A stretch of 64,000 bases of DNA from an uncultured Desulfuromonadales bacterium (GCA_903929485.1 CAIYUY010000152.1:15756-79755), one strand, 5' to 3'. Counted from the first letter of the stretch, positions 1,206 to 20,408 are shown. A program made the numbers and translations. The notes: generated from the sequence alone by a model not told the origin.

Positions 1206-1216
1206 AATAAAAACAA

Positions 1217-4408: not shown

Positions 4409-4414
4409 ATCAAT

Positions 4415-4915
4415 CTAGAGAATGTGCAGGGTGTCGTCATGGGATGGAGGGATATATTTTCGCTTTAACCCCTGCAGCCCCTGTCGGGTGAAGAGGTTCT
4501 CCATGTTCTCGTCGGCCAGGAGATCACCCATCTCTGCTTCCAGTTGTTCCGGATCGGCGCCTGACTCCAGTCGACGGATCGCCTCCTCCATGGGGCCCAG
4601 CTTCATCCCGGTGGCGTCGGAGAGCTTGCGCATGAACCGCGCCATGGCTCGGGGATCATTTTCGTCCACCCCTTCCATCTCGCCGGCCAAGGAGATCATG
4701 GCCCGCTCCAGTTTCTCATCGTCCATGTCCGGCATGCCGGGGATCGACTCTTCCGATTCCTGCCGATTTTTAGACACGGCAAAGGCCGACACTTGCCGTT
4801 CCAGTCCCGCCCTGCCGCAGCGGGGACAGTCGGGCTGTTTCTCCGTATTCACCCGTCGGGAGAGAAAGTTGAAGATGGTGTGACAGTCGTTGCAATAAAA
4901 TTCATAGACCGGCAT
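4415..4915 (-). CDS. FmdB-family zinc-ribbon protein (CxxC...CxxC) with an acidic C-terminal tail
   Basis: I chose the internal start MPVYEFYCNDCHTIF...CPRCG because GAGGAGG lies about 8 nt upstream. The N-terminus is the classic FmdB/CxxC_CxxC_SSSS pattern. Confidence 0.7.
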   Translation of the reverse strand: MPVYEFYCNDCHTIFNFLSRRVNTEKQPDCPRCGRAGLERQVSAFAVSKNRQESEESIPGMPDMDDEKLERAMISLAGEMEGVDENDPRAMARFMRKLSDATGMKLGPMEEAIRRLESGADPEQLEAEMGDLLADENMENLFTRQGLQGLKRKYIPPSHDDTLHIL

Positions 4916-5392
4916 GGCGCGAGCCTCCTCTTGGTAGTTTTTCTCCCTGGCACTCTTGTGTGGAAACATAATGGCTCACCGGGTTCCGGTCAAGGAAAAA
5001 AAGATCCCATTGGCAAATGGTAATATCCATGCTACGTCAAATAGCCGGTAATAATTTCTGTGTGTCGCGCTTTCGCGTATCGTTACAGAATTGTTACGTT
5101 TTGTGTACGGCTTCAATCAAATGTTTACTCATGGCGCGAGGCCTGCCGGGATATGAGCGCCTGGAAACTGTTGATATCCGGATGAATTTTCATGGCACGT
5201 GAATATAAATCAAGTAACTGGACAGGGATAGCCATGGTGCAAGTTTTGGGCGTATTTATTGCATGAGTGCGTTCGCTCCCCACCGTTGAGTGGGCGTGCT
5301 CAATGAGGCTGTTTCGTTTGTATTCGCGGATAGTCGCCGGTAATTGAACGTTTCCCAAAGGAGAAGAAAATGGTAAAAAAAGGAGAATATGT

Positions 5393-8300
5393 ATGTTGAG
5401 GAAAGTAGTGCTCTGGACTCTCTTGTCGCTCTTGCTCCCCACTCTATCCATGGCGGCGGTAACCCTTTACAAGGTTAAATATGTGGCTTCACCGGTAACG
5501 GGCGGTTCGGTTTCGGCTCCGGACACACGCAACCCGTATCCCACCTCCAGCGCGGCTGGCGCCCGATTCAGGGTAATGCCCAATTTTGGCCAAAAAATCC
5601 TCCTTGTTTCCCTTACCAACCCGGCCGATGGAGTCATCACGTATGATCCCAATTATGTCACCAACGGCTATTTCACGGTGGTCCCCACCAAGGATACGAC
5701 CCTGACAGTCACCTTTGGCGTCGCTCCCTCCGCGGTCTACGCCAACGCGGGTCCGGCCAAGAATCTCGTCGGATTGGGAAGCGGCAAGACGGTCTCCCTC
5801 GGGGGTACCGCCTCCAGCGTTCCCACCATTTCCGGTCTGCTCTTTGCGTACCAATGGACGGTTTCCGACTCCAACGGGCACTTTACCGCTCCCAACAGCG
5901 CGACCACCGGTTTCTATGCCGACGTTCCGGGCTCATATGTACCGGTATTGGTGGTCACGGCAGCCGGTAAAACCAGTGCTCCGTCCCAGACCGTGGTGGA
6001 CGTCGTCACCAACACCAACCTTGATTCCATCGCCTGTATTTCTTGCCACAATGCACGTTCCCCCCTGGTTGTCGCAGGGTACAAATCGTCCAAACATAAT
6101 ACCGGCAGCAACCCCACGGCGCCCAGTTGCCAGAGTTGCCACACCGTCGCCAATCCCACCGCCACTCACCCGGCAAACCTCGTCCCCTTTGCGACTCTGG
6201 GAAATGTCTGCCTCAACTGTCACAACGACGGCTTCGGCAATGTTCCGCTGCATCCGGTGGCCATCGGGGTGCGGCTCTGCATCTACTGCCATGATCCCCA
6301 CACGACAGCGGCCACTGACCCCGACATTCAGGGGACGGTCCACTTCAATAATGTTACCAGCGGTGCGTACCCCGCTTCCTACGTGACGTCCCGCGCCACC
6401 TGCTATGATTGCCATATTGATACGGCAGCCAACGCCACCATTCGCGGTCAGTGGGCCCGGACGGGGCACGCTAACGTGAAAAGCCCCGCCTGGACAACCT
6501 ACGACTTCAAGACCCGGGCCGGCTGCGTCCAGTGCCACACAACCACCGGCTTCATCGCTTACTCCACCGGAAAGGTCACCGGCGCCTGGGGCCTGGCCGC
6601 GGATAAGAGCAAGGAGATGGTTACCTGCGTCGCCTGCCACAATGACGTTCCCGCCGGCGCACTCAGGTCGGTTACTCCCATCAAGCCTTACGCCGATGAC
6701 AGTTACGTGAATCGTAACGTGGGCCCCTCCAACCTCTGCGTGGATTGCCACGGCGGCCGGAATAACGGCAAAAGCGTCAAGAGCGCCGACTTCACCAATC
6801 AGGCATTTGTTTCACCCCACTACATGGCCGCGGCCGGACTCCTTCATGGTCAGGGTGGCTACAACTTCCCCGGTTACTCCTTCTACTCCTCCAACAGCCA
6901 CCGGAAAGTCGGAATCGGCGCCACCATGGGGACCGGTATCGCCGGACCCTGCGTGGCATGTCACATGTCCGCCCCCGCCAAGCATCTCTACAGAGCGGTC
7001 TCCACCGATACCGGCGGCATCATAACAAGCATCGACACAACCCTCTGCGCCAACTGCCACAACAGCTCACTGTCCGTGGAGAGCCTGAAGGCAAATCAGG
7101 CGACATTCGATAACGCCCTCTCCGTCCTTACCGCGGCGCTCTCAGCCAAGGGTTTTGTCTATTCGTCCAATTATCCCTACTTCGTCAACACCAACTGGGG
7201 GGCCGGTACCGCCGGCGCCAACAGCATGGGGGCGGCGTTCAATTATGTCCTCCTCACCCATGAGCCGGCCGCCTACGCCCATAACCCGGCTTATGCCAAA
7301 CAGCTGGCAATGGACTCCATCGATGCAGCCTATCATGACGGGACACTCACCGGCTCCATCGATGATGTCCTCGCCGCACTGGTGGGAGAAGGGAAGATCT
7401 CCCAGGCCCAGGCCGACTCCCTTACCAGCTACAAGTCCGCCGGTAACTGCGCCTCATGTCACACCAACAACACGGGGAGCCATACCAAACATCTGAACTC
7501 CCTGATGGGCGCCAACGCCATCGGTTGTGTCGACTGCCACAAGAACACCGCGGCGTCCAATACGGCCCTGGTTCCGGGAACCACCAAGCATCTCAACGGC
7601 ATGGTGGATGTGATCTTCTCCGGCGCCGGTAGTTACGCCGCCGGGAGCTGCGGCGCCGTCTATTGCCACTCAAACGGCGCCGCAACCTACAGCTCTCCGG
7701 TCTGGGGCGGAAGCCCGCTGAACTGCGGCTCCTGCCATCCCCTGGCGTCACTGCGGGGAGCTCACGCCGCCCACATCGGCGGAGTCATCCCGGCCTACGG
7801 CGATACCGCCAACTCCTCCACCGCCGCGGAATATCGCTTCGGTTGCGGTAGCTGTCACCCCACCGACATTGCCGGTCATGGCAACGGTCATATCGACGTG
7901 ACCCTCGTGCCGACGAATGACGGCACGTTACGGAGCAAGAATGATCCCGCCGTTCTCATCGGCGGCATCGGCAACAGCGGCAGCGGCATCACCGGCGCCT
8001 CCGGCGCCACGGTTGTCTGCTCCGCTGCCTACTGCCACAGTAATGGTGGCGTCGGCGCCGCCCTGGTCTATGTCGCTTCTCCCAACTGGTACGGCGGTTC
8101 CTATTCCGGCGACAGATGCGCCATGTGTCATGGCAATGCTCCCGCCACCGGCGCCCACGGCAAGCACGGGGTCGGCATCCATTCAGGTCTCATCTCCGAC
8201 AGCGACGGGAATCTTATTCCGGCCGGCGCGGCCCCCGGCACGGTGTCCGGCCATGGTGACCCTGTTCAGTCCACCACCATCAGCTGCGGCACCTGCCACA

Positions 8301-8674
8301 GCGCCACGGTGACCAACAGCGCCAACGACAAGGGGGCTGCCTGCAGCTCCTGCCATACCGCCATTGCCAAGGGAACACCCGTTCTGGACAAGACCATGCA
8401 CCTTAACGGCACGGTGAATGTGGCGTTCAAGGATGTGAAGATCATCACCAAGGCCCAGATCGAACCGGCAAGCTTCGGCGTTTATTCCACCTGCTGGACC
8501 AGAACCGGTTCCTCCTACAAGGTCGGCGCCGGCTCATTTGATACCGCCCGGAGCAGCCTGAATCAGGCGACTTTCGCCGGGGATAAGAGCTGCGCCAATG
8601 TGGCCTGCCACAACGGCGGCACTCCCAAGTGGAGCGACAAGCTCCATTGCGTGAGCTGCCATTCGGCGCTCTGA
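5393..8674 (+). CDS. Secreted multihaem c-type cytochrome: 18 CxxCH plus 3 CxxxxCH motifs, with an N-terminal Ig/PKD-like region
   Basis: Signal peptide MLRKVVLWTLLSLLLPTLSMAAV. I counted the haem motifs by hand in the translation. The C-terminal third carries three CxxxxCH...CxxCH pairs (CGAVYCH/CGSCH, CSAAYCH/CAMCH, CANVACH/CVSCH), the pattern of the Geobacter C4xCH/C2xCH domain family. Confidence 0.9.
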   Translation: MLRKVVLWTLLSLLLPTLSMAAVTLYKVKYVASPVTGGSVSAPDTRNPYPTSSAAGARFRVMPNFGQKILLVSLTNPADGVITYDPNYVTNGYFTVVPTKDTTLTVTFGVAPSAVYANAGPAKNLVGLGSGKTVSLGGTASSVPTISGLLFAYQWTVSDSNGHFTAPNSATTGFYADVPGSYVPVLVVTAAGKTSAPSQTVVDVVTNTNLDSIACISCHNARSPLVVAGYKSSKHNTGSNPTAPSCQSCHTVANPTATHPANLVPFATLGNVCLNCHNDGFGNVPLHPVAIGVRLCIYCHDPHTTAATDPDIQGTVHFNNVTSGAYPASYVTSRATCYDCHIDTAANATIRGQWARTGHANVKSPAWTTYDFKTRAGCVQCHTTTGFIAYSTGKVTGAWGLAADKSKEMVTCVACHNDVPAGALRSVTPIKPYADDSYVNRNVGPSNLCVDCHGGRNNGKSVKSADFTNQAFVSPHYMAAAGLLHGQGGYNFPGYSFYSSNSHRKVGIGATMGTGIAGPCVACHMSAPAKHLYRAVSTDTGGIITSIDTTLCANCHNSSLSVESLKANQATFDNALSVLTAALSAKGFVYSSNYPYFVNTNWGAGTAGANSMGAAFNYVLLTHEPAAYAHNPAYAKQLAMDSIDAAYHDGTLTGSIDDVLAALVGEGKISQAQADSLTSYKSAGNCASCHTNNTGSHTKHLNSLMGANAIGCVDCHKNTAASNTALVPGTTKHLNGMVDVIFSGAGSYAAGSCGAVYCHSNGAATYSSPVWGGSPLNCGSCHPLASLRGAHAAHIGGVIPAYGDTANSSTAAEYRFGCGSCHPTDIAGHGNGHIDVTLVPTNDGTLRSKNDPAVLIGGIGNSGSGITGASGATVVCSAAYCHSNGGVGAALVYVASPNWYGGSYSGDRCAMCHGNAPATGAHGKHGVGIHSGLISDSDGNLIPAGAAPGTVSGHGDPVQSTTISCGTCHSATVTNSANDKGAACSSCHTAIAKGTPVLDKTMHLNGTVNVAFKDVKIITKAQIEPASFGVYSTCWTRTGSSYKVGAGSFDTARSSLNQATFAGDKSCANVACHNGGTPKWSDKLHCVSCHSAL

Positions 8675-8686
8675 TGACGTGAACCT

Positions 8687-8713
8687 GCCGGCCCGCGAAA
8701 AGAGCGGGCCGGC
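8687..8713 (+). other. Intercistronic GC-rich hairpin between the two cytochrome genes
   Basis: Perfect 10-bp stem GCCGGCCCGC/GCGGGCCGGC with a 7-nt loop GAAAAGA. No U-tract follows. Confidence 0.5.
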
Positions 8714-8767
8714 TTCACCGTAAACGTATCCCTAATTACTCAATACGACAAAAGAGGGTCGATCACC

Positions 8768-11700
8768 ATGGGCAAAGTCATTACGAAAAAAATCAGAGGA
8801 ATGGGATGGATGGCGAGGATCGGTCTGGTGCTCCTCTGCACCCTGCTGACCAGCGTCTTCATGCAGCAGGGATGGTACAAGCCGCTGGCCTCGGAAGCGG
8901 CAATCAGTGTCCAGCAGGCCTGGAGCACCGTCTATAACGGCACAGCCACTCCGGGAACGTACGCGTATCCCATCACCTCCGGTCCCAACAGGACCCTGGT
9001 CGTCGGAGTCTCCACCGTGGTCACCGCCACCACCGCCTCGCAGAGCTGCACCGTCACCTGGGGTGGGAAGCCGCTGGCGCTTGCCACGGGGAATGCCGCA
9101 ATCTCCGCCCAGCAGCACACCTACCTCTTTTACCTGGGTGAGGCGGATATCGCCGCGGCGTCGGGCTCGTCTCTCGTCATTGCCGTCACCGGCGGCACGG
9201 CAGCCTACAGTAACGTCTACGCCGGCGTCTATAACGGAGTGGACCAGGGTGCTCTCACGAAGATGGGGAGCTTTAACAACGGAACGACTACTACTTCCAC
9301 GATCGGTCCCCTTTCTCCCACGCTGACCCTCGCCACCGGCGACCTGGCGCTGGAACTTGTTAACCTGACTCGAACCGGCAGCGCCACCGCCCGGACGATC
9401 AGCAGCTGGGCCACCGGCTGGGCCGGCATTATTGCCAATACCGGCGCCAACAGCAGCAACTATGCCGTAAACACCAACATCGCCGGCAGCTCGACGGTGG
9501 GAACCACCTCCTCTTCTCATACGGCCAGCAGCTCCACGCTGGGCGCCATGTCAGCCCTGATCATCTCGCCGGTGGCCGGTGCGCCGGTCATAACCTCCGT
9601 CTCCCCCGTCTCCGTCAACATCGGCGATCCGGCCACCACCGTCACCATCACCGGCGCCGGTCTCACCGGTACCTCCTCCGTGACCTTCAGCGGGACCCTG
9701 GTTACCGCGGGGAGCCCCACTGTCGTCAGCGACACCCAGGTGACCGTGCCGGTAACCGCCGCAGCCGGAGCCGCCGCCGGCGACCGGACGGTGACGGTGA
9801 CCACACCGGTGGCGACCGGTTCCAAGCTGCTGACCGGTTTCGCCGTCAGCAACTTGCCGGCCCCCACCGTCACCGGCATCTCCACTCCCATCCTCGGTCA
9901 GGGAGGGAGCGCCCAGAACGTCACCATCACCGGCGCCAACTTCGTTAGCGGCGCCGGTCTCGCCTCAACCTTCGGCGCCGGCGTCACCGTGAACTCCACG
10001 AGCTATGTCAGTGCGACTCAACTCACCGCCAACATCACGGTGACGACTTCGGCCACCGTCGGATTGCATGACGTGGTCGTCACCAATCCCGATACCAAGT
10101 CCGGCGCCGGCACGGGTCTCCTCACGGTGAACGCCCGGGCCACTGTTCTCCTGACCTCCCCGTTCTCCGGTCTCCAGGGAGTAACGAACCAAGTCGTGAC
10201 GCTCTTCGGCACCGGCTTTTATCCCGGCGCGGGCTTGGCGGCTGTTTTCAGTGGCGCCGGTATTACCGTCAACTCAATAAGTTATGTGGATATGAATCAC
10301 CTCGGCGCCAACATTTCGCTGAGCGCAACGGCAGCCACCGGCGCCCGTACCATCACCGTCACTAATGGCGATACCGGGATCTCCGCTGCCGGTGGTTCTT
10401 ATACGGTGCTTGCTTCTACCGGCGCCGTCTCGATTTCTTCCCTCACTCCCTATGCAGTCGGTCAGGGGGTCAGTAACGCAAATGTTCAAATCTATGGCGC
10501 CGGTTTTGATCCTGCCGCCACCGTCACCTTCAGCAGCAGCAGAGTAACACTCAACTCCACCACCTTTATCGACTCCACGCACCTTACCGCCAACATTACA
10601 ACCAGCACCTCTTCCGCTCAGAGCTCCAACGTCACGGTGACCAATCCTGCCAGTGCCGGAAGCGGGACGTTTACCGCCACCGCCGGCTTCTACATCAACA
10701 GCCGTCCGACAATCACCTCGGTGACCCCCACCACCGGGCTCGCAGGTAACGCCTATGACCTGACCTTCGTGGGGACCGGCTTTCAGGCCGGGGCCGTAGT
10801 AGCCATCACCGGATCGGGGGTAACGATCAGCAACGTGAACGTGACCAGCGCCACCAGCATGACGGCCCATATGGTCATCGGCGCCACCCCCACCTACGGG
10901 CTTCAGACCCTCACCATCACCAACCCCGATCTTGGGTACAACACCATCTCCTTCAACGTGGCCAGCCTGACCTCGCCGGCAATCACCTCCATTTCCCCCA
11001 ACGTCATTGGTCAGGGGGCCACCGGGGTGAATGTCACCATCAACGGCGCCAACTTCGTCAGCGGCGCCACGGTGCTCTTCGGCGCCACCGGTAATACCAA
11101 CTTCACCACCAACTCGGTGACCTTCATCAGCTCCACCCAGCTGATCGCCAATCTTACTGTCGGGACAGGAGCGACGGTGGGGACCAACAACACCACTGTC
11201 ACCGTGACCAATCCCAACAGTGAAGCCGGTCTTGCCTCGCTTCTCAGCATCACTGCCCGTCCGGGGACGACGACGTTTACACCCACCATCGGGACGTTGG
11301 GAACCACCTTCGACATCGCCATCGTCAGCACTACTTTGGCGGCCGGCCCCGGCTTCGGCGTCACCGTCAGCGGCGCCGGTGTGACGGTGAACAGCTTCGC
11401 CTTACTCAGCGCCACGTCGGCCACCGCCAACGTGACCATCGACGCCGGCTATCTTGTGGCTCCCCTGGGAAGCCGGGTCATCACTCTCTCCAATGGCGAC
11501 TACGGCGCCAGGACCGGCACCCTGACCGTGCGCGGGCTTGTCCCCACGGTCATCGCCGCGACTCCCGCCATTCGCCAGGGGGCTGTCAACCAGAACGTGA
11601 CGATCACCGGGACTAACTTCTACCCCGGCGCCGTCGCCACCTTCAGTAACGCCGGTGTTACCGTCAACTCCACCACCTTCGTCGATCCCGCGACGGTAAC

Positions 11701-14341
11701 AGCCAACATCTCCGTGGACGGCGCCGCCGTCATCGGTAGCAGCAACATCACCGTCACCAACGCCGATACCCAGGCCGCAACGGGGACCGGAATCTTTACG
11801 GTGTCCGCCGCGCCTACCGTCACCTCCAACTCCCCTCTGACCGGTGGCCGGGGGGCGACCCTGGATGTTACCATCAACGGCGCCGGCTTCGTTTCCGGCG
11901 CCTCGGTTGTCTTCAGCGGCACGGGCATCACGGTGAACTCCGTCAGCGGCAGCGGTTCCAGCCTCACGGCAAACATCACCATCGCAGCAGACGCACTCCT
12001 GACTACCCGGAGTATCACGGTAACCAACCTGGACGGCAGCAACGCAGCCGGCGGCGCTTTCACGGTCCTCCTGCCGGTCGCCACCACCACTGCTCCCCTT
12101 ACCTTCGGTCAGGTCACCGAAACGAGTATCACGGTTTTGGCGCCCTACACCAATGACAGCAACGGTAACAATGCCTGCACCATCCTCTGGGGTACCGCTC
12201 CAGGGTCCTATACCAACAGCGCCGCTGCCGTGCGGCAGTCGGGATACTTTACGGCAACTCTCACCGGTCTCACCGGCGGGGTTGATGGAGAAGGTAAGGC
12301 TTACTATTTCCAGGTAACTTTCAGCGATGCCGACGGCGTCATCGGCGCAAACCCGGTTGCCGGGGTGCAATCCACCAAGGCCCGGCTGTTGATGCATAAC
12401 AGTGAAAACCTTAATTCAGGTAAATGGTCACAGGGGTGGGGTGTCACCGGCGGCAAGTACGGTGTGTTCACCTGCTCCACCTGCCACAGCGAGAACACCA
12501 CCAACAGCAAGATGATTGCCGGTTCCATCCAGACCCCCTCCCTGGAAAACTGGAGCTCCTCGGGGAGCAGCACGGTCGCTCCCGTTGTTTTCACCAAGGT
12601 CATGGGGGTCGATGCTCCCCACGCCACCTCCGATAAGGTTTGCGAAGTTTGTCACAGTCGCACGAGCCACCATCTCTACAACAACCCCGCTGCCAACCAT
12701 GAGGGGACCAAGGCCTGCACCGACTGCCATAGCCACAAACAGGGCTTTCTCACAAATTGCATCGATTGCCACTCTACCCCCCAGGGTAACCGTCGTCAGG
12801 TCGTGGGGAATGGTGGAGACTTCTTCTCCAACATGACCACCCATGTGAAGAGCTCCAGCATCAGCTCGCTCTCCTGCATGGCCTGCCACGACACCAATGG
12901 TCACAGATCCTTCGGCGATGGCGTCAGCGTCAAGCTGCGGAACGCCAACGGCGGCGCCTCCGTCGTGTACGACGGCACCTCCGCCACCGCCTCGGCAGTG
13001 AAGGACACCTGTATCTCCTGTCATGACGCCAACGGCGCTTCCGCCTACGGCGCTAACGCCCGGTCGCCCTTCGCCCCCTCCGGCGACACCAAGGCGCCCG
13101 CCGATATCAGCCAGTACTGGCCGGCAACGGGGGGAGCTCATAATGTCAACATGGTCTGCTTCAACTGCCATGGCAATTCAAAGGGGGTTGACGGGAGTAC
13201 CGTCAATCCGAAATATAACGGCCATGCTTCGGGAACCAAGCATATTCTCCAGGATCAGGCCTACGACGTGGTGAATCCCAATAACTACTGCTTCAATTGT
13301 CACAATGCGGCTTCCACCAATCCGAACAAGTCGTCAAAAAACATTGCCGGACAGATGGCTCTGGCTTCCAGGCATACCACCGCCAAATGCTTCGACTGCC
13401 ATGGCGCCGAGAGCAATAGCGTCAACAGCATGCATTCCCTGCGCGCCGGTTCACAGGTGAACTCTACAACCATCGCCAACAATATTTCCAATGCCGACGG
13501 CAGGAGCATGACTTGGTCCGGGACCAAGTGGGGTGGCGCTTCAGCTTCCACTCCTCTGACTTCGGGGACGGTAACCGCGGAATATCAGATCTGTATTAAA
13601 TGTCATGCCGCAACCGGCTCCGGCACGACCCCCGACGTTCCCGGGGTCGGTACCGCCGCCGCATCCCTCACCAATCTGGCTCTGGAGTTCAATCCCAACA
13701 ACGCTTCGGGCCACCCGGTCGTCACGGGACTGAACAATTACCGCAACTCCGTCGCCCCCAAGGCGCTGGCCGCAGCCACCATGAAGGCCCCCTGGAATGT
13801 GAACCTGGGGACCCAGGTCATGAGCTGCACTGACTGCCACGCCACCGACAGCGCCGGGGCCAAGGGGCCCCACGGCTCCTCCGTGAAATGGATGCTGGCC
13901 GGCGCCAACAAGGCATGGCCCTACACCACTGCCGCCGCCAACGGCACCAGCAGCGGCACCTTCTTCCGGATCGCTACCTACAATACCGGTGACGGTACGG
14001 CAAACGGCCTCTTCTGCCTCAATTGCCACACGATCAATGCCTCCAACAACTGGCATGCGAACTCCAATCTCGCAACCAGCGGCGGCGAACATACCTCCAG
14101 TACAACCGGTCCTCCGGTTTGCGTCAACTGTCATATCAGGGTCCCCCACGGCGGCAAGATCGCCCGTCTCCTCCAGACGACCAATGCTCCCGGGCGTTAT
14201 CAGGCCGGTGGTATTGCCGGTACGCCGCTCTTCACCCAGTGGGGCCCCACCACGGGAACCATCAAAGGGACGACCATGAGCAGCAGCAACTTCAACAGCT
14301 CATGCAATGAGCACAGCGGTACCGGCGGAGAAGCCTGGTAA
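8768..14341 (+). CDS. Giant surface protein: signal/anchor, unknown about 230-aa domain, nine IPT/TIG-like Ig repeats, one FN3-like domain and a C-terminal 13-haem c-type cytochrome domain
   Basis: 1857 aa. AGAGGG RBS upstream. Hydrophobic N-terminus ARIGLVLLCTLLTSVF. The repeats have the consensus P.IT..SP....QG.....VTI.G..F..GA...FSG.GVTVNS......T.LTANI........G...ITVTN.D. I counted 13 CxxCH motifs between about 12468 and 14130. Confidence 0.85.
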   Translation: MGKVITKKIRGMGWMARIGLVLLCTLLTSVFMQQGWYKPLASEAAISVQQAWSTVYNGTATPGTYAYPITSGPNRTLVVGVSTVVTATTASQSCTVTWGGKPLALATGNAAISAQQHTYLFYLGEADIAAASGSSLVIAVTGGTAAYSNVYAGVYNGVDQGALTKMGSFNNGTTTTSTIGPLSPTLTLATGDLALELVNLTRTGSATARTISSWATGWAGIIANTGANSSNYAVNTNIAGSSTVGTTSSSHTASSSTLGAMSALIISPVAGAPVITSVSPVSVNIGDPATTVTITGAGLTGTSSVTFSGTLVTAGSPTVVSDTQVTVPVTAAAGAAAGDRTVTVTTPVATGSKLLTGFAVSNLPAPTVTGISTPILGQGGSAQNVTITGANFVSGAGLASTFGAGVTVNSTSYVSATQLTANITVTTSATVGLHDVVVTNPDTKSGAGTGLLTVNARATVLLTSPFSGLQGVTNQVVTLFGTGFYPGAGLAAVFSGAGITVNSISYVDMNHLGANISLSATAATGARTITVTNGDTGISAAGGSYTVLASTGAVSISSLTPYAVGQGVSNANVQIYGAGFDPAATVTFSSSRVTLNSTTFIDSTHLTANITTSTSSAQSSNVTVTNPASAGSGTFTATAGFYINSRPTITSVTPTTGLAGNAYDLTFVGTGFQAGAVVAITGSGVTISNVNVTSATSMTAHMVIGATPTYGLQTLTITNPDLGYNTISFNVASLTSPAITSISPNVIGQGATGVNVTINGANFVSGATVLFGATGNTNFTTNSVTFISSTQLIANLTVGTGATVGTNNTTVTVTNPNSEAGLASLLSITARPGTTTFTPTIGTLGTTFDIAIVSTTLAAGPGFGVTVSGAGVTVNSFALLSATSATANVTIDAGYLVAPLGSRVITLSNGDYGARTGTLTVRGLVPTVIAATPAIRQGAVNQNVTITGTNFYPGAVATFSNAGVTVNSTTFVDPATVTANISVDGAAVIGSSNITVTNADTQAATGTGIFTVSAAPTVTSNSPLTGGRGATLDVTINGAGFVSGASVVFSGTGITVNSVSGSGSSLTANITIAADALLTTRSITVTNLDGSNAAGGAFTVLLPVATTTAPLTFGQVTETSITVLAPYTNDSNGNNACTILWGTAPGSYTNSAAAVRQSGYFTATLTGLTGGVDGEGKAYYFQVTFSDADGVIGANPVAGVQSTKARLLMHNSENLNSGKWSQGWGVTGGKYGVFTCSTCHSENTTNSKMIAGSIQTPSLENWSSSGSSTVAPVVFTKVMGVDAPHATSDKVCEVCHSRTSHHLYNNPAANHEGTKACTDCHSHKQGFLTNCIDCHSTPQGNRRQVVGNGGDFFSNMTTHVKSSSISSLSCMACHDTNGHRSFGDGVSVKLRNANGGASVVYDGTSATASAVKDTCISCHDANGASAYGANARSPFAPSGDTKAPADISQYWPATGGAHNVNMVCFNCHGNSKGVDGSTVNPKYNGHASGTKHILQDQAYDVVNPNNYCFNCHNAASTNPNKSSKNIAGQMALASRHTTAKCFDCHGAESNSVNSMHSLRAGSQVNSTTIANNISNADGRSMTWSGTKWGGASASTPLTSGTVTAEYQICIKCHAATGSGTTPDVPGVGTAAASLTNLALEFNPNNASGHPVVTGLNNYRNSVAPKALAAATMKAPWNVNLGTQVMSCTDCHATDSAGAKGPHGSSVKWMLAGANKAWPYTTAAANGTSSGTFFRIATYNTGDGTANGLFCLNCHTINASNNWHANSNLATSGGEHTSSTTGPPVCVNCHIRVPHGGKIARLLQTTNAPGRYQAGGIAGTPLFTQWGPTTGTIKGTTMSSSNFNSSCNEHSGTGGEAW
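9581..12072 (+). repeat. Nine tandem, diverged Ig-like (IPT/TIG-type) domain repeats of about 92 aa, inside CDS 8768..14341
   Basis: I delimited the repeat boundaries by hand from the recurring P(A/T)(I/V)T..(S/T)P ... TVTN.D pattern. Divergence at the amino-acid level argues against recent duplication or an assembly artefact. Confidence 0.8.
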
Positions 14342-14419
14342 CGCTCATCAGCCCCTCCGGGAGATGATATTCCGGAGGGGCGCACTCTTCTCCCACCTCA
14401 TCGGTATTACTCGTAATGA

Positions 14420-14447
14420 AAGCCGGGGTTGACTCCCCGGCTTTTTT
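14420..14447 (+). terminator. Rho-independent terminator after the giant cytochrome gene
   Basis: AGCCGGGG-TTGACT-CCCCGGCT followed by a T6 run. A second 10-bp hairpin without a U-tract sits at 14351..14381. Confidence 0.75.
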
Positions 14448-14483
14448 ATGAACAAAACGGAAATCAAAGCCGGAGCGCGAACC

Positions 14484-15026
14484 ATGCGTAAAACTACCCT
14501 GATCATCTTTCTTTTCACCACCGCTCTGTTTGCCGGCTGTAAAGAGGCTCCACCGGGCAAGGGGGGGGCAGTACAACCCCAACGTACATCCGGTGGCGCC
14601 GTCACCGAGATCGTCCACCGAAGGATTGCCCGCTATAATCAACTTCTCAGCGAGGGGTACAAGAGTATCAACATGACCTCGCTGCAGGAGGTGACGACTC
14701 CGGAGTTGGCGGAAAAAGCCTATTATCATATGGCGGCCATCGGCGAGGGGAACAGCCGGATGGTGTCGGAGTTGAAAAAACTCGATTTCGTGGAGACTCT
14801 CTGCTCTAGTGCCATCACCTGTCGGGTTGTCACCAGGGAGCTGTGGGATTACTCCTATGAAGAGATCAAGAGCGGCAAGAAGGTCTACGAGGTGAAGGAT
14901 TACCTCTATGATGTGCGGTATCTGCTGGAGAGCCGGCAGGGAAGGTGGGTCATAACGGAGATCACCGCCACCGGCGAAGATCGCAAGGAGGTCCCCTCAT
15001 GGAAAGAGCTACTCAAAAAAAGGTAA
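14484..15026 (+). CDS. Putative lipoprotein, unknown function
   Basis: I chose the start MRKTTLIIFLFTTALFAGC because the longer ORF would begin inside the terminator T-run. The lipobox is LFAGC. I recognised no family. Confidence 0.55.
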   Translation: MRKTTLIIFLFTTALFAGCKEAPPGKGGAVQPQRTSGGAVTEIVHRRIARYNQLLSEGYKSINMTSLQEVTTPELAEKAYYHMAAIGEGNSRMVSELKKLDFVETLCSSAITCRVVTRELWDYSYEEIKSGKKVYEVKDYLYDVRYLLESRQGRWVITEITATGEDRKEVPSWKELLKKR

Positions 15027-15066
15027 TATCTAACGACCGCGACCATGGTGGCGAGGGAAGCAGTGC

Positions 15067-15864
15067 ATGCCTGAGCTGACCGTCCGCCGCTGTTGCGCCA
15101 TCTTCGCCATCGTTGCTTTTTTTGCTGTTGTCGTCATCGCCGCTCTCCACCGTCTGGGGAGTGAGAGCAGGGTGGTGGGGAAGAGCGGATTGATAGGCTC
15201 GCCGGACATTGTCAAATTAATGGCTGATGATCCTTCGGAGGCGTACCGGATCTGGAAGGAGTTCGGCTACCGGGGCCGAATAATCGTTTATCTGGCGGAT
15301 CGATGGGAAACGTGTAATCCCGATGAAATGATACCGGCGCCATTGGCTCGACCGTACCCCCTGTCTCTGGTGAATCCGGCACGGTTTCTTGAGGAGAACA
15401 ACCTGAACGGCGCTACGTTTCTCTATATCGCTTCCTTGAATAGGATTACCCGGAAGATCGTGGCGCTTCTCCCCCCCGGGGAGATCAGCAGGATGGTGGG
15501 AGCGACCAAGAGAGGGAAGGATTTTCAGATTACATCCAGCGGTATTGATGATTCCCGGCAAGGTTTTCCGCGACGATTCACCACTGTCGACCATTTTGCC
15601 GGCAGTGGAGAGCCCGTGCTTCTCTACGTGGGGGCATCCTGTCTTCGCGCGGTGGAGCCCGAGGAACTTTACCGTCTCTTGATCAAATCCGGAGTTACTA
15701 CTGACTGCGTCATCCTTTGTCGGGAAAAAGGGAAAGATTCGGTGTCTCCGGTTGAAGTAGCCAAACTCCACCGCTTTGCTCGGCTCATGGGCTTGAGAAC
15801 CCTTTCGGGAAGCCGGGGCGCCACCCGGTACGTAGCTCCCATGGCCGCGGTACCGGCATCATGA
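15067..15864 (+). CDS. Hypothetical protein with a single N-terminal transmembrane anchor
   Basis: 265 aa. GAGGGAAG RBS upstream. Hydrophobic segment CCAIFAIVAFFAVVVIAAL. The stop overlaps the next start (ATGA). I recognised no family. Confidence 0.5.
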   Translation: MPELTVRRCCAIFAIVAFFAVVVIAALHRLGSESRVVGKSGLIGSPDIVKLMADDPSEAYRIWKEFGYRGRIIVYLADRWETCNPDEMIPAPLARPYPLSLVNPARFLEENNLNGATFLYIASLNRITRKIVALLPPGEISRMVGATKRGKDFQITSSGIDDSRQGFPRRFTTVDHFAGSGEPVLLYVGASCLRAVEPEELYRLLIKSGVTTDCVILCREKGKDSVSPVEVAKLHRFARLMGLRTLSGSRGATRYVAPMAAVPAS

Positions 15865-17189
15865 AAATTGTTACCTTTCCCCACTGGAAGCCCCGGCTGC
15901 CGGCGGGAGTCACACTGCTATCTCTGATTCTGAACGGCATCCTCCTGTCACGGCAGCCGGTTTCCCTGGATGATTTTCACGTGGCGCTCTCCGCCATCAA
16001 TTTTACGGAATCCGGACAGCTGGGCCCGACCATGTGGAATCATCCGGTGTTGCGTAACCTCCTGGTCTACGGGACCATGAAGCTGTTCGGCACCGGAGTC
16101 CTCGGTGTGAAAGGGGTGTCTCTTCTCCTGGGAACCCTCTGCACTCCCCTGGTGGCCCTGGTGGCCCGGCGGATCTTTCGAGATGAGCGGATCGCCCTCA
16201 CCGCGGCTCTTCTCTGGGCTGTTGACCCCCTGGTCATCGATTTCTCCCGCCAGGGTATCAACGATATCTATCTGGCCTTCTTCCCCTTGCTTGGCATCTA
16301 TCTGGCCTATCGTTTTCGAGAAACAGCCAACTCGGCGTGGCTGTTGGTTTCGGGGATAGCCTTCGGTCTGGGGTTGGCTTCCAAGTGGAGCGCCCTGTTC
16401 CCTTTGACGGCGACCTTTGTTCTGATCATCGTCACCATCGCTGGGGGAGCGGGGGGGATGCGGGAGAGGTTGGCTCGTTATTGTCATGTGACGGCCCTCC
16501 TCCTGGTGATTCCGGCCTTGGTTTATCTGCTGACTTTTGTCCCCTGGTTTGCCCGGGGGTACACTCCGGCGGAGTGGCCGGCGCTCCAGCGGAGCATGTT
16601 TCTGGAGACCTCTCAACATGCGGGGTACAAGCCCAAACTGTGGGACGACCGGGACAACCGGGCCTGGAAGTGGTTCGTCGTCCCGTCGCTGTTCGTCGAC
16701 CCTTTCATGAATCTGGACCACATTTGGGGAGATGAAGAGGTGGTAGTGACTCCGGAGAAGAACGTAACGGTGGTCCTGGGGGTCGCAAATCCCCTGGTCT
16801 GGCTGCTGACGCTCCCGGCGATTTTTTTCCTGCTCCGCCGAGGAATTCGCCAGCGGGATGAAGGGAGAGTGTATCTGGTTGCGTTGTTTTGCTGCTCTTA
16901 TCTCCCCCTGATTCTGTCGCCGCGCCCCATCTGGTTGAATACCGCCCTTTCGGTTCTTCCTTATGCTATCATGGCTGTCGGGGGTCTGATTTGGACTCTG
17001 GCTGACCGTCTCCAGCGACCGGGGCGCGGTGTTGCACTTTATCTGCTCCTGGTTCTCCTCGTTGCTTCGCCGCTGTATCCGTTGGCCATCGGCAAGGGGA
17101 TGAGAATACCTTTTTTCAGGGAGTACCTGGCAAGTCGCTATCTCGTGCAGTTCAAAGAGAAGATGCCTCATACGCCGTCACAGCCATGA
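15861..17189 (+). CDS. GT39/PMT-like (GT-C fold) phospholipid-carrier-dependent glycosyltransferase
   Basis: 442 aa and polytopic. An acidic pair (SLDDF) sits in the first loop. The layout HP.LRNLL.YG..KLFG ... ARRIF ... DP..IDFSRQGINDIYL resembles bacterial protein O-mannosyltransferase/ArnT-type enzymes. Confidence 0.6.
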   Translation: MKIVTFPHWKPRLPAGVTLLSLILNGILLSRQPVSLDDFHVALSAINFTESGQLGPTMWNHPVLRNLLVYGTMKLFGTGVLGVKGVSLLLGTLCTPLVALVARRIFRDERIALTAALLWAVDPLVIDFSRQGINDIYLAFFPLLGIYLAYRFRETANSAWLLVSGIAFGLGLASKWSALFPLTATFVLIIVTIAGGAGGMRERLARYCHVTALLLVIPALVYLLTFVPWFARGYTPAEWPALQRSMFLETSQHAGYKPKLWDDRDNRAWKWFVVPSLFVDPFMNLDHIWGDEEVVVTPEKNVTVVLGVANPLVWLLTLPAIFFLLRRGIRQRDEGRVYLVALFCCSYLPLILSPRPIWLNTALSVLPYAIMAVGGLIWTLADRLQRPGRGVALYLLLVLLVASPLYPLAIGKGMRIPFFREYLASRYLVQFKEKMPHTPSQP

Positions 17190-17208
17190 CGTTATCCGGA
17201 CTACATTC

Positions 17209-18525
17209 GTGAAACCAGCCAAATTCCTTACCGCACGCTCCACCGTCATGACGCTGTTGATTGCCGTCAGTTCGGCGCTCCTCCTTACCTGTTTTCTGCC
17301 GCAACGGAGCTCCGGTGACGGAAATATTCCCCCGTGGGTCGGTCGACTGCCGGAGCAGTTCCATTTTCTCTCCTCACTGCTTGGCCTGGACAACATTGTT
17401 GGCGCCGGCTGGTTTGCATTTTTGGTCGGGCTCTTTTCATGTTCACTCATCTTCTCCACCTTGGCCCAGTACAAAACCGCCATGTCTCAGGCCCGGCGAC
17501 TTCCCTCGGGGTCCATACCGGACGAGAGTATCCGCCTCAAACTGTCGCCCTCGCTTCTTGCCCAACGTTTACAGACGGCGGGATACCGCTTGGCCGGCAG
17601 CGGGGAGGGCGTAGAGAGGTATGTGAAAAACCGCTGGGGTTACTGGGGAAATTTTCTGATTCACCTGGGATTGGTCACCGTGGTTCTCTTCTCCCTGGTT
17701 TATATCGTGACCCGGCATCGGGTGTTGCTGCGGCTTACCGGGGGTGAGATGACGTTGCTCACCCCCGGTAATTTTGTCGAAATGAAGGGGGTCATGCCGC
17801 TTCAGCGCCGCCTTCCCGCCGGCATCTCCTTGATCCGGTTGGAACCCCGTTTCTGGAAAAACGATAAACTGGAATTTCTGAGTTCCGAACTTTCATTCAC
17901 CGACCGTCCCGGTAGTCAGCCTCGGCGGGTGGATGTTGCCCTCTGTGACAAGTCCCAGTACGGTCCCTTTATCGTCTACCAGATGAATGCCTACGGTCGC
18001 GCTTTTGATCTCTTGTTCGAATCACCGCGGGGAGAGAGACATGGACAGCGTTTTTTTCTGCCGTATCCTCCCAGTCACATGAAGGCCGGCTATGGCGATA
18101 CGGCGCTGGAAGGGACCGATCTCCTTCTCAAGGGAAAGTTCTACACCGATTCAAAACGCCAATCCATGAAGCTCAACTCTCCACCTCTTTATCTGCGTCT
18201 TCAGCGAGGACAGGAACTCCTGGGGGAGGTAACTCTTCAGCCGGGTGCCGCCAAGGTGTTGGGTCCTCTCAAGGTCACGTTGACCCGTTCTTCCTGGTGG
18301 ACTGATATCCTCCTGGAAGGGAGTCGCGGCACGACCGGTATTTTTGCCGGCTTTGCCGTCATTCTGGCGGGGGTGCTTATCTCCTACTGTCTTGTCCCCC
18401 GAGAGATCATTGTCAGGGAATCCGGCGGAACGCTTCATCTCCAGCAGGTGGCGCGGCGTTTCGCCCTGTTTTACCGTGAAGAGTTTGCAGATATCATACA
18501 GGCACGACAATCAGGAGAATCATGA
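17209..18525 (+). CDS. resB: Cytochrome c biogenesis protein ResB/Ccs1 (System II)
   Basis: 438 aa with a GTG start. The topology and the WGYWGNFLIHLGLVTVVLF segment are typical of ResB. The stop overlaps the ccsA start. Confidence 0.7.
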   Translation: MKPAKFLTARSTVMTLLIAVSSALLLTCFLPQRSSGDGNIPPWVGRLPEQFHFLSSLLGLDNIVGAGWFAFLVGLFSCSLIFSTLAQYKTAMSQARRLPSGSIPDESIRLKLSPSLLAQRLQTAGYRLAGSGEGVERYVKNRWGYWGNFLIHLGLVTVVLFSLVYIVTRHRVLLRLTGGEMTLLTPGNFVEMKGVMPLQRRLPAGISLIRLEPRFWKNDKLEFLSSELSFTDRPGSQPRRVDVALCDKSQYGPFIVYQMNAYGRAFDLLFESPRGERHGQRFFLPYPPSHMKAGYGDTALEGTDLLLKGKFYTDSKRQSMKLNSPPLYLRLQRGQELLGEVTLQPGAAKVLGPLKVTLTRSSWWTDILLEGSRGTTGIFAGFAVILAGVLISYCLVPREIIVRESGGTLHLQQVARRFALFYREEFADIIQARQSGES

Positions 18526-19352
18526 ACGGTTCATTGGCAGTTGTCGTAGGAATTCATTGGGGAGCGGTTATCCTGTATGTCCTGGCGACGATCATGTTCA
18601 TCGTCGGGCAGTTTTTTGAAAAACCACGGTTTGTCCGTCGGGGGCTGCAGGTAGCCGTACCCGGTCTGCTGCTCCATGGCGCCGGTTTGCTTATCTGGTG
18701 GCGGATGGTGGGCCATGGTCCCTATATCGACCGTTTCGAGGTTCTCTCGTCCAACGCCTGGATTCTGCTCTGCGCCTTTCTCCTGTTCAGTATACCGTAT
18801 CCTCGTTTGAAGGGGGTTGGCATCATCGTCTTTCCCGCCACCTTCATTCTTGTGGCTCTGGGGCTCTTCTTCAATCCGGAGATCAAGACACTTCCTCCAA
18901 CCTTTAGGAGTGTCTGGCTGGTGCTGCATATCATCTTCTACAAGATCGCCTTCTCATCCATCATCATCGCCTTTGCCTATTCGCTTTTCTTTCTTCTGAT
19001 CAAGCGAAATCGACTGAAACGGCTGGTTCGGGTGCTTCCGGATCTCCCCGGAATCGACATGTATGCGTACCGTTTCGCCGGCTTCGGATTTACCTTCTGG
19101 GCCATCGGCATGCTGGCCGGCTCCATCTGGGCGTATCAATCCTGGGGGAGCTTCTGGAACTGGGATCCGGTTCAAACCTGGTCGTTGGTCACCTGGGGGG
19201 TATTTGGCATCTATCTTCATTTGCGACGCTTTTTTGCCTGGCAGGGGGAGCGGGCGGCCTGGCTCTACACCGTCTGCTTTGTTCTCACCATTGTCTCGCT
19301 CTTTTTGACGCCCCTGTTCCAGTCGTCTATTCATGCGGAATATTTTAAATAG
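18522..19352 (+). CDS. ccsA: Cytochrome c biogenesis haem-handling protein CcsA/ResC (System II)
   Basis: 276 aa. Tryptophan-rich WWD-type motif WAYQSWGSFWNWDPVQTWSLVTW followed by LHLR. Confidence 0.85.
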   Translation: MNGSLAVVVGIHWGAVILYVLATIMFIVGQFFEKPRFVRRGLQVAVPGLLLHGAGLLIWWRMVGHGPYIDRFEVLSSNAWILLCAFLLFSIPYPRLKGVGIIVFPATFILVALGLFFNPEIKTLPPTFRSVWLVLHIIFYKIAFSSIIIAFAYSLFFLLIKRNRLKRLVRVLPDLPGIDMYAYRFAGFGFTFWAIGMLAGSIWAYQSWGSFWNWDPVQTWSLVTWGVFGIYLHLRRFFAWQGERAAWLYTVCFVLTIVSLFLTPLFQSSIHAEYFK

Positions 19353-19361
19353 GTTATTCCT

Positions 19362-20408
19362 TTGACCCTCAGCAGAGCATTGAAACTTGTCAGGGTGTTC
19401 CGGAGGATGAGCCTCCGCCAGCCTACTTTTGTCAGTTACAATATCTCCAACGTCTGCAACGAAGCCTGCCCCATGTGCTCGGTCTGGCAACGTGGCAGTG
19501 TCAAGGAACTCTCAGTTTCCGATATGGAGAGGATTTTTCTCGACTTGAAGCGGTTCGGTTTCATGGTGGCCGAGATATCCGGAGGCGAACCGTTCCTGCG
19601 CCGTGATCTCTTTGACGCCTTCGCCATGTTGGATCGGATCGGTTTTTTGTATACGACCGCCACCAATGGGACCTTGCTGACCCCTGAATCCATCAAGCGA
19701 CTGAGCTCGTGCCAGGGGTTGTTGCAACTGGCGGTGAGCATCGACTCCCTGGATCGTGTAACTTACCAACGTTTGCGGGGAAGAGACCTGCTGCCGAAGC
19801 TTCTGGAGAACATCGACCTGCTGGCCCAAGCAGGACTACCCATGCCGGTGAAGCTCAACCTGGTTATGAATCGTTTCAACTACCGGGAAACGATGGCCAT
19901 ACTCGCCTATGCCGCGTCGCGTAAACTTGCTCTTTCGGTCTTTCCCGTAAATCTGGGTGACGGTTTTCTGCATCGCTCCAATCCTCATGAATATCTTCCC
20001 AACCCGGTGGAACGGCGGGAGATGGCCGAACTCTTCAGGGAACTGGCGAGGATGAGGAGGAGAGGGGAGTCGCTCTGGGAATACAGCGGGTTCTATGAAA
20101 AAGCAGCGGATTATGTGGAAGGTCGACCGGTGGGACCCTGTGACGCGGGTGCTCTTTATATGGATCTGCATGCGGGGGGTGATATCTCGGTCTGCGTCGA
20201 TCAACCGGTGATAGCGGATCTCCGCGGCAACAGCATAGCGGATATCTGGCCTAAGCTCATGGCACAGCGGGAAGCGGTGCTCAGTTGTTCAACGACAACC
20301 CCCTGTTTCTATACGTGTACCTACAATATTTCCATTACCGCCAGAAACGAAGCATCTTTTTTTCGGGAAACAGCTTCTGTCGCCCTACGACGCCTGGTGG
20401 GGGTCTGA
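19362..20408 (+). CDS. Radical SAM enzyme with a C-terminal SPASM/twitch-like Cys cluster
   Basis: CxxxCxxC motif (NVCNEACPMC). GGEPFL SAM-binding motif. The C-terminus reads GPCDAG...GDISVCVD...CSTTTPCFYTC. The TTG start is uncertain. It begins 9 nt after the ccsA stop. Confidence 0.7.
   Translation: MTLSRALKLVRVFRRMSLRQPTFVSYNISNVCNEACPMCSVWQRGSVKELSVSDMERIFLDLKRFGFMVAEISGGEPFLRRDLFDAFAMLDRIGFLYTTATNGTLLTPESIKRLSSCQGLLQLAVSIDSLDRVTYQRLRGRDLLPKLLENIDLLAQAGLPMPVKLNLVMNRFNYRETMAILAYAASRKLALSVFPVNLGDGFLHRSNPHEYLPNPVERREMAELFRELARMRRRGESLWEYSGFYEKAADYVEGRPVGPCDAGALYMDLHAGGDISVCVDQPVIADLRGNSIADIWPKLMAQREAVLSCSTTTPCFYTCTYNISITARNEASFFRETASVALRRLVGV

Follow-up and report, generated by a model that had tools for sequence, protein, structure and literature searches.

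Substrate-dedicated haem lyases are established in NrfI, CcsA1 and NrfEFG, of which NrfI handles the CXXCK motif and CcsA1 the CX15CH motif. In Geobacter, four ResB/ResC pairs per genome (G. sulfurreducens and G. metallireducens) have been described beside multihaem cytochromes, and each pair was proposed to serve the neighbouring cytochromes, with the purpose of this arrangement left open (Aklujkar et al. 2009). A separate, conserved housekeeping resB/ccsB pair adjoins purHDE in Desulfuromonadia. Glycosylation has also been associated with cytochromes of this group: extra density in cryo-electron microscopy maps of OmcE filaments has been interpreted as glycosylation, genes of glycosyltransferase (GT) family 39 lie near omcE, and a 2025 preprint ties GT39-containing clusters to OmcE glycosylation. 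The locus analysed here lies at positions 5393-20408 of a stretch of 64,000 nucleotides (64 kb; the window) from an uncultured Desulfuromonadales bacterium (GCA_903929485.1, CAIYUY010000152.1:15756-79755); it encodes two giant multihaem cytochromes, cyt1 and cyt2, and six further genes, g1 to g6, among them a ResB/CcsA pair. On balance, and by analogy with NrfI and CcsA1, the locus probably encodes a substrate-dedicated System II haem lyase together with a lineage-specific modification arm.

The open reading frame (ORF) listing and translation give eight genes in the same direction, all of them where an earlier note on this DNA had placed them. The features of the locus are as follows.

5393-8674, + strand: cyt1, secreted multihaem cytochrome, 1093 amino acids (aa), 18 CXXCH and 3 CX4CH motifs
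8687-8713, + strand: hairpin between cyt1 and cyt2, GC-rich, no T run, read from the sequence
8768-14341, + strand: cyt2, multihaem cytochrome, 1857 aa, 13 CXXCH motifs
13550-14338, + strand: cap domain of cyt2, aa ~1595-1857, four invariant CXXCH motifs
14303-14338, + strand: tail of cyt2, Cys1846-N-E-His1849-SGTGG-Glu1855-A-Trp1857-COOH
14351-14381, + strand: first hairpin 3' of the cyt2 stop codon
14419-14447, + strand: intrinsic-terminator-like hairpin 3' of cyt2, 10-bp stem, 6-nt loop, T run
14484-15026, + strand: g1, lipoprotein, 180 aa, lipobox LFAGC
15067-15864, + strand: g2, single-pass membrane protein with an alpha/beta domain
15861-17189, + strand: g3, GT-C glycosyltransferase of PMT/PMT_2 type, 442 aa, polytopic
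17209-18525, + strand: g4, divergent ResB/CcsB paralogue
18522-19352, + strand: g5, CcsA/ResC paralogue
19362-20408, + strand: g6, cytoplasmic radical S-adenosylmethionine (SAM) enzyme, CX3CX2C, partial SPASM domain

Conserved synteny, named in the earlier note as a check on its idea of a dedicated assembly line, is found for the six-gene module in Geobacteraceae, Desulfuromonadaceae and Anaeromyxobacteraceae, in about 25 GTDB loci that include Geobacter, Geomonas and Geomesophilobacter, and in metagenome loci besides. The closest relative genome is that of an uncultured Geobacter (metagenome-assembled genome, MAG; L006), in which CcsA is 95% and the radical SAM enzyme 74% identical. The window is accordingly assigned to an uncultured freshwater member of the Geobacteraceae, whose contig recurs in about 21 metagenome assemblies. 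In a blastp survey of 33 loci the module genes were present in nearly every Geobacterales locus, in most of which the PMT-like gene sits between g1 and ResB. In Geobacter, Geomonas, Geomesophilobacter, Geoanaerobacter, Desulfuromonadaceae and Anaeromyxobacteraceae there are g6 orthologues of 43-77% identity. Both G. pickeringii and G. grbiciae have the order giant cytochrome, ResB, CcsA, g1, g2, PMT, radical SAM enzyme, flavin adenine dinucleotide (FAD) oxidoreductase, and in Anaeromyxobacteraceae the genes form two adjoining blocks, one with g2, PMT, radical SAM and FAD oxidoreductase genes and one with the cytochrome, ResB, CcsA and in some cases g1. The six genes are thus only part of the set usually seen in relatives: a seventh gene in most of them encodes a PRK07208-type FAD oxidoreductase (NF005548, 685 bits), and an eighth in many encodes a BchE-like B12 radical SAM enzyme that scores about 405 bits on TIGR02026 (cutoff 481). 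The window was searched for these two enzymes, for LuxE and for another ResB/CcsA, and none of them is present.

Outside these families a reduced version of the module is kept. A Thermodesulfobacteriota MAG encodes a 449-aa cytochrome with the cap domain, followed by ResB, CcsA, a g1 homologue of about 167 aa and, last, a B12 radical SAM enzyme; in Desulfobulbaceae the cytochrome, ResB and CcsA are followed by an ORF of about 167 aa that is not a g1 homologue, two LuxE-type genes, a 193-aa ORF and the B12 radical SAM enzyme. The CcsA proteins of these loci are 42-54% identical to g5, and other CcsA copies about 30%. The g5 clade as a whole shows 42-95% identity within and about 30% to the other sampled copies; by sequence comparison the ResB/CcsA pair is a distinct clade, co-inherited across phyla with one cytochrome family. 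The same association was found in 41 metagenome loci having at least 4 kb downstream of the cap domain, where neighbours were counted within 8 kb: CcsA in 27, ResB in 23, a g1 homologue in 18, the B12 radical SAM enzyme in 17, PMT plus g2 in seven and g6 in six. By a rough estimate, chance would place a CcsA that near the cap domain in about 1-2% of loci. The functional link between cytochromes and downstream operon is therefore supported by comparative sequence evidence, and that part of the assembly-line idea holds; the conserved partner is the C-terminal domain of cyt2, not cyt1.

The cytochromes beside the module vary widely in size and haem count, and their common part corresponds to the last ~260 residues of cyt2. 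This cap domain contains, besides the four invariant CXXCH motifs, six more conserved His residues, and its motifs are EYQICFKCH, EFNPNNxSxHPV, MxCSDCH…GPHGS, LFCxNCH and CxxCHIRVPHGGK. At E<=1e-30, a profile search of 1.84 billion representative proteins recovered 1080 clusters or more; among the best 150 of these matches, nearly all have the domain at the extreme C-terminus, in proteins of 278-4629 aa, and family members carry generic names only in the source databases. The AlphaFold2 (AF2) model of the cap region has a predicted template modelling (TM) score of 0.80 and no Foldseek fold match (top match OmcE 7tfs, E = 6.6, TM 0.14), and the haem region of cyt2 has no relative in PDB by sequence.

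The domain ends in a short tail, usually of the form C-x2-H…E-x-W-COOH. At least 90% of family members keep its Cys and His, and 95 of 118 complete tails (80%) end exactly in Trp. Its forms in the family are C-x(1-9)-CH or C-x(n)-C-x(1-4)-H, and cyt2 carries the single-Cys form, Cys1846-x2-His1849. A plain CX(n)CH haem site was considered for the tail and set aside; this description is true of about one quarter of the family, and those members lack the dedicated genes. The genes that accompany each tail type are given below.

Tail C-x(n)-CH, 11 loci: dedicated ResB/CcsA 0, B12 radical SAM 0, PMT 0, g6 0, Trp end 0
Tail C-x(n)-C-x(1-4)-H, 17 loci: dedicated ResB/CcsA 15, B12 radical SAM 12, PMT 0, g6 0, Trp end 10
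Tail with single Cys (cyt2 type), 10 loci: dedicated ResB/CcsA 7-8, B12 radical SAM 5, PMT 7, g6 6, Trp end 10

With phylogeny uncorrected, Fisher tests gave p = 3.6e-6 for the dedicated CcsA clade (the second and third tail types above, pooled, versus C-x(n)-CH) and p = 1.4e-4 for PMT (single-Cys versus two-Cys tails). The accessory gene set appears to switch with the tail type, which is a strong lead rather than proof because the tests are uncorrected for phylogeny.

From the N terminus, cyt2 consists of a signal/anchor, a beta-rich region, about eight repeats and a 13-haem C-terminal region (aa 1236-1857), in which all 13 CXXCH motifs lie within aa 1236-1785, in the last 620 residues. The repeats (aa ~270-1130) are of the IPT/TIG 'choice-of-anchor Z' type (NF058597, 222 bits in 8 stretches; PF01833, 59 bits). 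A QH_alpha match of 23.8 bits falls at aa 264-346, and since this is the Ig-like repeat region, the QH_alpha matches of cyt2 are read as reflecting the repeats only. In cyt1, a Sec-type signal peptide (…LSMA/AV) precedes 21 haem motifs, 18 CXXCH and 3 CX4CH, and the latter are located inside three GSu_C4xC__C2xCH domains (TIGR01904/PF09698, 'CxxxxCH…CxxCH'; TIGR01904, 71 bits in 3 stretches). The haem counts of 21 and 13 in the earlier note are thus correct, as is its description of both proteins as rich in Ser and Thr: these residues make up 19.3% of cyt1 and 25.9% of cyt2, rising to 33% in the repeat region of the latter. A cap domain of the cyt2 type is not carried by cyt1, for which no PDB relative was found by sequence.

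Among the products of the operon, g4 and g5 show the characteristics of a System II synthase, namely a CcsA with the WWD domain and flanking His residues and an adjoining ResB with a conserved His. The ResB match of g4 (PF05140) is marginal, 30.9 bits against a cutoff of 24.6 and in the N-terminal part only, and His152 is conserved in 23 orthologues. The g5 protein is the most conserved of the module (80-95% identity) and scores 119.8 bits with Cytochrom_C_asm. Its WWD motif, WGSFWNWDPVQTW, aligns with the WWD region of the CcsBA structures 25vk and 7s9y, and His136, His233, His271 and the Trp and Asp residues of the WWD motif are conserved in at least 95% of 25 orthologues; His271 may correspond to P-His2, judging by position only. 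As far as alignment can tell, the pair retains all haem-handling residues. With the housekeeping CcsB equivalog TIGR03144, g5 reaches 143.7 bits and remains below the cutoff of 187.6, which is consistent with a divergent paralogue. The lipoprotein g1 matches no Pfam or NCBIfam family and is nevertheless a core gene, accompanying ResB/CcsA even in other phyla (33% identity, E = 2e-18, for the homologue in locus L088); its Cys pair was considered as a thiol-redox motif and rejected, as the pair is not conserved in the alignment.

The remaining three genes form the putative modification arm. In g3 both PMT (PF02366, 66.5 bits) and PMT_2 (PF13231, 65.9 bits) exceed the Pfam threshold, the protein is polytopic, and the acidic residue of the first loop, Asp37, is conserved in 21 orthologues, which are the characteristics of a GT-C transferase of the PMT type. 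The bacterial protein O-mannosyltransferase equivalog NF058602 is not reached (30.2 bits, cutoff 800), and a sequence search of PDB gave no relative for g3. In one Geobacteraceae MAG (L007, 5932-8626) the PMT-like gene of the module is doubled in tandem, the two paralogues being 47% and 53% identical to g3. The g2 gene is always found with the PMT-like gene and belongs to no Pfam or NCBIfam family; its AF2 model (pLDDT, the per-residue model confidence, 81) consists of a transmembrane helix and an alpha/beta domain with weak likeness to the arginase fold (E = 6e-3, TM 0.37-0.48). No function is assigned to g2 from this likeness, which is weak and comes with no conserved His/Asp metal ligands. 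In g6 (Radical_SAM, 74.2 bits) the orthologue alignment shows an invariant CX3CX2C and five invariant C-terminal Cys residues, C-x12-G-x4-C … C-x5-C-x3-C; the full SPASM motif has seven Cys, and PF13186 is recorded in a few orthologues. No NCBIfam equivalog is reached at cutoff, and the best matches are generic (MoaA, NirJ2 and WgkB, 67-81 bits). Pfam and NCBIfam thus support the families that the earlier note had assigned to the string: PMT/PMT_2, ResB (marginally), CcsA and radical SAM.

The closest functional parallel is found in NrfI and CcsA1 of Wolinella succinogenes and their System I analogues NrfEFG and SirEFG. As in those systems, a synthase paralogue, probably an additional one, lies beside, and is here co-inherited with, a cognate multihaem cytochrome, the WWD and His machinery is kept, and the presumed role concerns a site that the general enzyme does not handle. 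An extra synthase alongside a general one is seen in relatives, which show four pairs in each of two Geobacter genomes, the pair next to purHDE, and a second CcsA copy in L023. Candidates for an unconventional haem-binding motif at the locus are the three CX4CH of cyt1 and the conserved tail Cys1846-x2-His1849 of cyt2. The differences are that ResB and CcsA are separate genes here, in the company of genes for a conserved lipoprotein, a GT-C transferase and either one or two radical SAM enzymes, and that the candidate site would be the C-terminal Cys-x2-His…Trp tail rather than CXXCK or CX15CH. A dedicated haem lyase is a known kind of system; the accessory enzymes and substrate family of the one proposed here are undescribed.

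A similar arrangement has been described in the Geobacter clusters, such as GSU2891-GSU2888 and GSU2881.1-GSU2880, where giant cytochromes are followed by ResB, a conserved hypothetical protein, ResC and a radical SAM enzyme, in some cases together with an acyl-protein synthetase; the Desulfobulbaceae layout with two LuxE-type genes matches GSU2891-2888 as tabulated for G. sulfurreducens. The tables of 2009 list no PMT-like, g2, SPASM radical SAM or FAD-oxidase genes, and the shared cap domain and tail were not recognised at that time. The literature searched contains no description of the gene composition of the module or of the cap domain and no later work on the GSU2888-2893 cluster. The suggestion of the earlier note that the composition may be undescribed can therefore be kept for the gene set, but the proposal that Geobacter has dedicated ResB/ResC pairs dates from 2009. 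The genes that come after the module in G. pickeringii are Iso_dh, Semialdhyde_dh, PseudoU_synth_1, ribosomal L13/S9 and Semialdhyde_dh. These presumably match a leuB-asd-truA-rplM-rpsI-argC run that we take to lie beside GSU2880 in G. sulfurreducens.

In the omcE cluster (Geobacter and Geomonas; downstream GT families 2, 4 and 39), genes of extracellular multihaem cytochromes are found near resB/ccsB and GT39-type transferases, which recalls the present locus. Its resB/ccsB, however, is the conserved housekeeping pair beside purHDE; OmcE, a filament subunit with four haems, is not related to cyt1 or cyt2; and neither a radical SAM enzyme nor g1/g2 genes have been described in that cluster. 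With respect to the solved nanowire subunits (OmcS, OmcE, OmcZ), PDB gave no sequence match for cyt1 or the haem region of cyt2, and Foldseek no fold match for the cap region. With the Mtrc-MtrF_II-IV haem domain (PF22113) of the decahaem cytochromes MtrC/OmcA, cyt1 scores 87.9 bits and cyt2 40.5 bits, but the subfamily model TIGR03507 reaches only 17.1 bits against a cutoff of 209, the architecture differs, and no MtrA/MtrB-like gene is found among the annotated ORFs around the locus, in which no search was aimed at one.

Given these comparisons, the following mechanism is proposed. ResB/CcsA and the periplasmic lipoprotein g1 would form a substrate-dedicated System II cytochrome c synthase that exports haem and attaches it to cyt2 and probably also to cyt1. 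Two reasons for such dedication can be envisaged: the cap domain or tail may hold a site that the general synthase cannot handle, or about 34 haems may have to be loaded on slowly translocating giant polypeptides. The arm made up of g2, the transferase g3 and the radical SAM enzyme g6, which is present only in Geobacterales and Anaeromyxobacter and would be joined in relatives by the FAD oxidoreductase and the B12 radical SAM enzyme, could add a further modification at the periplasmic face. This would most likely be O-glycosylation of the Ser/Thr-rich stalk or of the tail from a polyprenyl-phosphate sugar, whose donor the cytoplasmic radical SAM and flavin enzymes would tailor. A periplasmic-face glycan is the most plausible product of the arm because of the GT-C assignment of g3, the nucleotide-sugar neighbourhood of locus L086 (see below) and the OmcE/GT39 precedent. 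Once mature, the two cytochromes would presumably act as extracytoplasmic electron carriers on an Ig-like stalk; surface location and conduit function are suggested by that stalk architecture only.

The junctions between the genes can be fitted into this scheme. The region after the cyt2 stop codon has a folding energy of -52.8 kcal/mol (z = -6.4 relative to shuffles), and its second hairpin, AAAGCCGGGG-TTGACT-CCCCGGCTTT, has a GC-rich stem followed by a T run, which bears out the strong terminator described after cyt2. This hairpin is not among the sites given by a simple terminator scanner; we suspect that some of the T run is taken into the maximal stem. The six-gene string begins with the ATG of g1 at 14484, 36 nt past the T run, in the gene order of the earlier note. 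The sigma-70 promoter scan gave no site between cyt2 and g1 and no more sites in total than in shuffled sequence, and in relatives the spacing from the cytochrome to the next gene is 18-480 nt, or the genes overlap. The 14419-14447 element is probably a partial terminator, which would let some transcripts through and set expression of the structural cytochrome genes above that of the maturation enzymes. Between cyt1 and cyt2, a hairpin with a perfect 10-bp GC stem and no T run, GCCGGCCCGC-GAAAAGA-GCGGGCCGGC, might act in mRNA stability or processing and in this way determine the ratio of cyt1 to cyt2. As previously noted, g2 overlaps g3 at 15861 and g4 overlaps g5 at 18522, each time by ATGA. 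The 9-nt gap at 19353-19361 before g6 exists if g6 starts with the TTG at 19362 and is lost with the ATG at 19407 taken by the gene callers; TTG is the better start because ALKLVRVFRRM, encoded between the two codons, matches an N-terminal extension shared by the orthologues. By analogy with other Geobacter electron-transfer genes, a GEMM-type riboswitch was expected upstream of cyt1; Rfam gave no riboswitch match there at gathering level or at E<=1, and the candidate was dropped.

Several observations weigh against the proposed dedicated lyase with its putative modification arm. The FAD oxidoreductase and B12 radical SAM enzyme of most relatives are absent from the window, as is a second ResB/CcsA (64 kb at hand, contig up to 138 kb). 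The operon contains no polyprenyl-phosphate glycosyltransferase (GT2), and no porin or outer-membrane partner is seen among the annotated window genes, for which no systematic search was made. The strong terminator is compatible with a separately transcribed operon. In the metagenome scan some cap-domain cytochromes have no nearby CcsA, and locus L087 contains a full module with no cytochrome within 10 kb. The Cys-His spacing of the tail varies, unlike any proven haem c site, and the tail-type tests are confounded by phylogeny.

Considering the tail itself, a more far-reaching proposal can be made, although we regard it as rather improbable: the tail of the cyt2 family may carry a previously unrecognised covalent feature, either haem at a non-canonical or single-Cys site or a cross-link or cofactor made by radical SAM chemistry, installed by the dedicated ResB/CcsA, g1 and the radical SAM enzymes. 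Tail modification by cytoplasmic enzymes has a conceptual precedent in the maturation of quinohaemoprotein amine dehydrogenase, a periplasmic redox protein whose Cys, Asp/Glu and Trp residues are altered, before or around export, by the cytoplasmic SPASM radical SAM enzyme QhpD and the flavoenzyme QhpG. The resemblance does not extend to the proteins, as the QhpD family is not in the top 25 of the 41 NCBIfam families matched by g6, and the flavoprotein here is of the PRK07208/amine-oxidase type.

A related alternative places the radical SAM enzymes (SPASM here, B12 with the FAD oxidoreductase in relatives) at the centre: they would act on the cytochrome or on haem, giving a tail cross-link or cofactor, or a modified haem that only the dedicated CcsBA delivers, and PMT would be secondary. 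The persistence of the tail Cys, His and final Trp and the change of accessory sets with the tail type speak for this, as does the SPASM-like domain of g6, which is typical of peptide and protein maturases; furthermore, the C-terminus of a Sec substrate should remain longest in the cytoplasm, within reach of an enzyme. From order to order the B12 radical SAM enzyme keeps 65-85% identity, and its 405 bits are obtained on a model for BchE, a tetrapyrrole-modifying enzyme, but the cutoff of that model is not reached. Nor does g6 match a maturase family at cutoff, and the window contains neither the B12 enzyme nor the FAD oxidoreductase. In L086 the g6/FAD-oxidase pair stands beside sugar genes with no cytochrome. 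We consider this alternative unlikely.

The sugar genes of L086 bear equally on a second alternative. In this Geoanaerobacter MAG (1-9801) the radical SAM and FAD oxidoreductase orthologues are divergent from a nucleotide-sugar cluster of NTP transferase, GHMP kinase, GT2, epimerase, split transketolase, second B12 radical SAM and dTDP-sugar isomerase genes, which suggests an unusual branched or methylated sugar, and no ResB/CcsA or PMT is located within 10 kb of the pair. The g2-PMT-radical SAM arm could accordingly serve the envelope (lipid A, lipopolysaccharide core or exopolysaccharide), being linked in the genome and not acting on the cytochromes. PMT_2 includes lipid A transferases of the ArnT type (the NCBIfam ArnT match of g3 is 17.5 bits), flavoproteins of the PRK07208 type are distantly related to UDP-galactopyranose mutase, and an exopolysaccharide/O-antigen-type cluster begins 4 kb downstream in the window. 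Yet the arm is tightly coupled in translation through the two ATGA overlaps, its PMT is inserted between g1 and ResB in most Geobacterales, and it is limited to loci with the single-Cys tail (7/10 versus 0/17), which makes an envelope role more doubtful still. That the ResB/CcsA pair is simply the general housekeeping System II, beside the cytochromes by chance, would agree with its intact catalytic residues and with the lack of a second copy in the window, but is rejected as very improbable on synteny, clade identity and literature: the pair and the cap-domain cytochrome are inherited together in several phyla, the clade of the pair is distinct, g5 falls under the CcsB cutoff, Geobacter genomes have four pairs and Desulfuromonadia the conserved one next to purHDE, and in Geomesophilobacter a second CcsA lies 9 kb away.

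Some further observations concern the relatives. For an accessory enzyme, the B12 radical SAM protein is unusually tightly conserved between Geobacterales, Desulfobulbaceae and other Thermodesulfobacteriota, and a copy in L005 (3580-5070) is more divergent, at about 47% identity. The BchE-like copies are located as follows.

L018, 8310-9842
L023, 8155-9717
L087, 8370-9878
L088, 14003-15511
L089, 17234-18742

After the L087 module lies a hemN-like gene, which was discounted as a hint of haem chemistry, since it belongs to the usual hemW-hrcA-grpE-dnaK context. Long ORFs of about 1000 aa with weak CcsA similarity lie beside cap-domain cytochromes in L155 (11531-14812), L163 (13611-16625) and L164 (12658-15876), often with a weak g1-like ORF between. 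The association may extend to lineages with fused synthases, because these ORFs resemble fused CcsBA-type synthases.

In the window itself, rpsU, a DEAD-box helicase gene and a class I fumarase gene separate the cytochrome operon from the large exopolysaccharide/O-antigen-type cluster (24369-49200, + strand). Its genes specify a Wza-like exporter of 1048 aa, whose N-terminus is Gln-rich and of low complexity, Wzz/GNVR, a Wzx-type flippase, an FrhB-like Fe-S protein, a pyruvyl transferase, several GT4 enzymes and a Wzy-like polymerase. A tRNA gene at 1130-1202 (+ strand; Rfam 63 bits), located between 2-oxoacid:ferredoxin oxidoreductase genes and a 984-aa NAD-glutamate-dehydrogenase-like gene, has an anticodon read as GGC from the alignment and would be tRNA-Ala.

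What would a dedicated synthase of this kind mean? One clade of the Geobacter ResB/ResC pairs is now tied to an unannotated C-terminal domain of giant multihaem cytochromes that is spread over many phyla, and the puzzle of 2009, why Geobacter has several haem-attachment pairs, gains concrete hypotheses on the substrate and the site. If the tail or the Ser/Thr-rich stalk is modified, there would be consequences for the heterologous production and engineering of large extracellular cytochromes, and the modification could represent new post-translational chemistry on redox proteins. Should the tail indeed carry the covalent feature considered above, it would constitute a new mode of cytochrome c maturation in more than 1000 protein clusters from many phyla.

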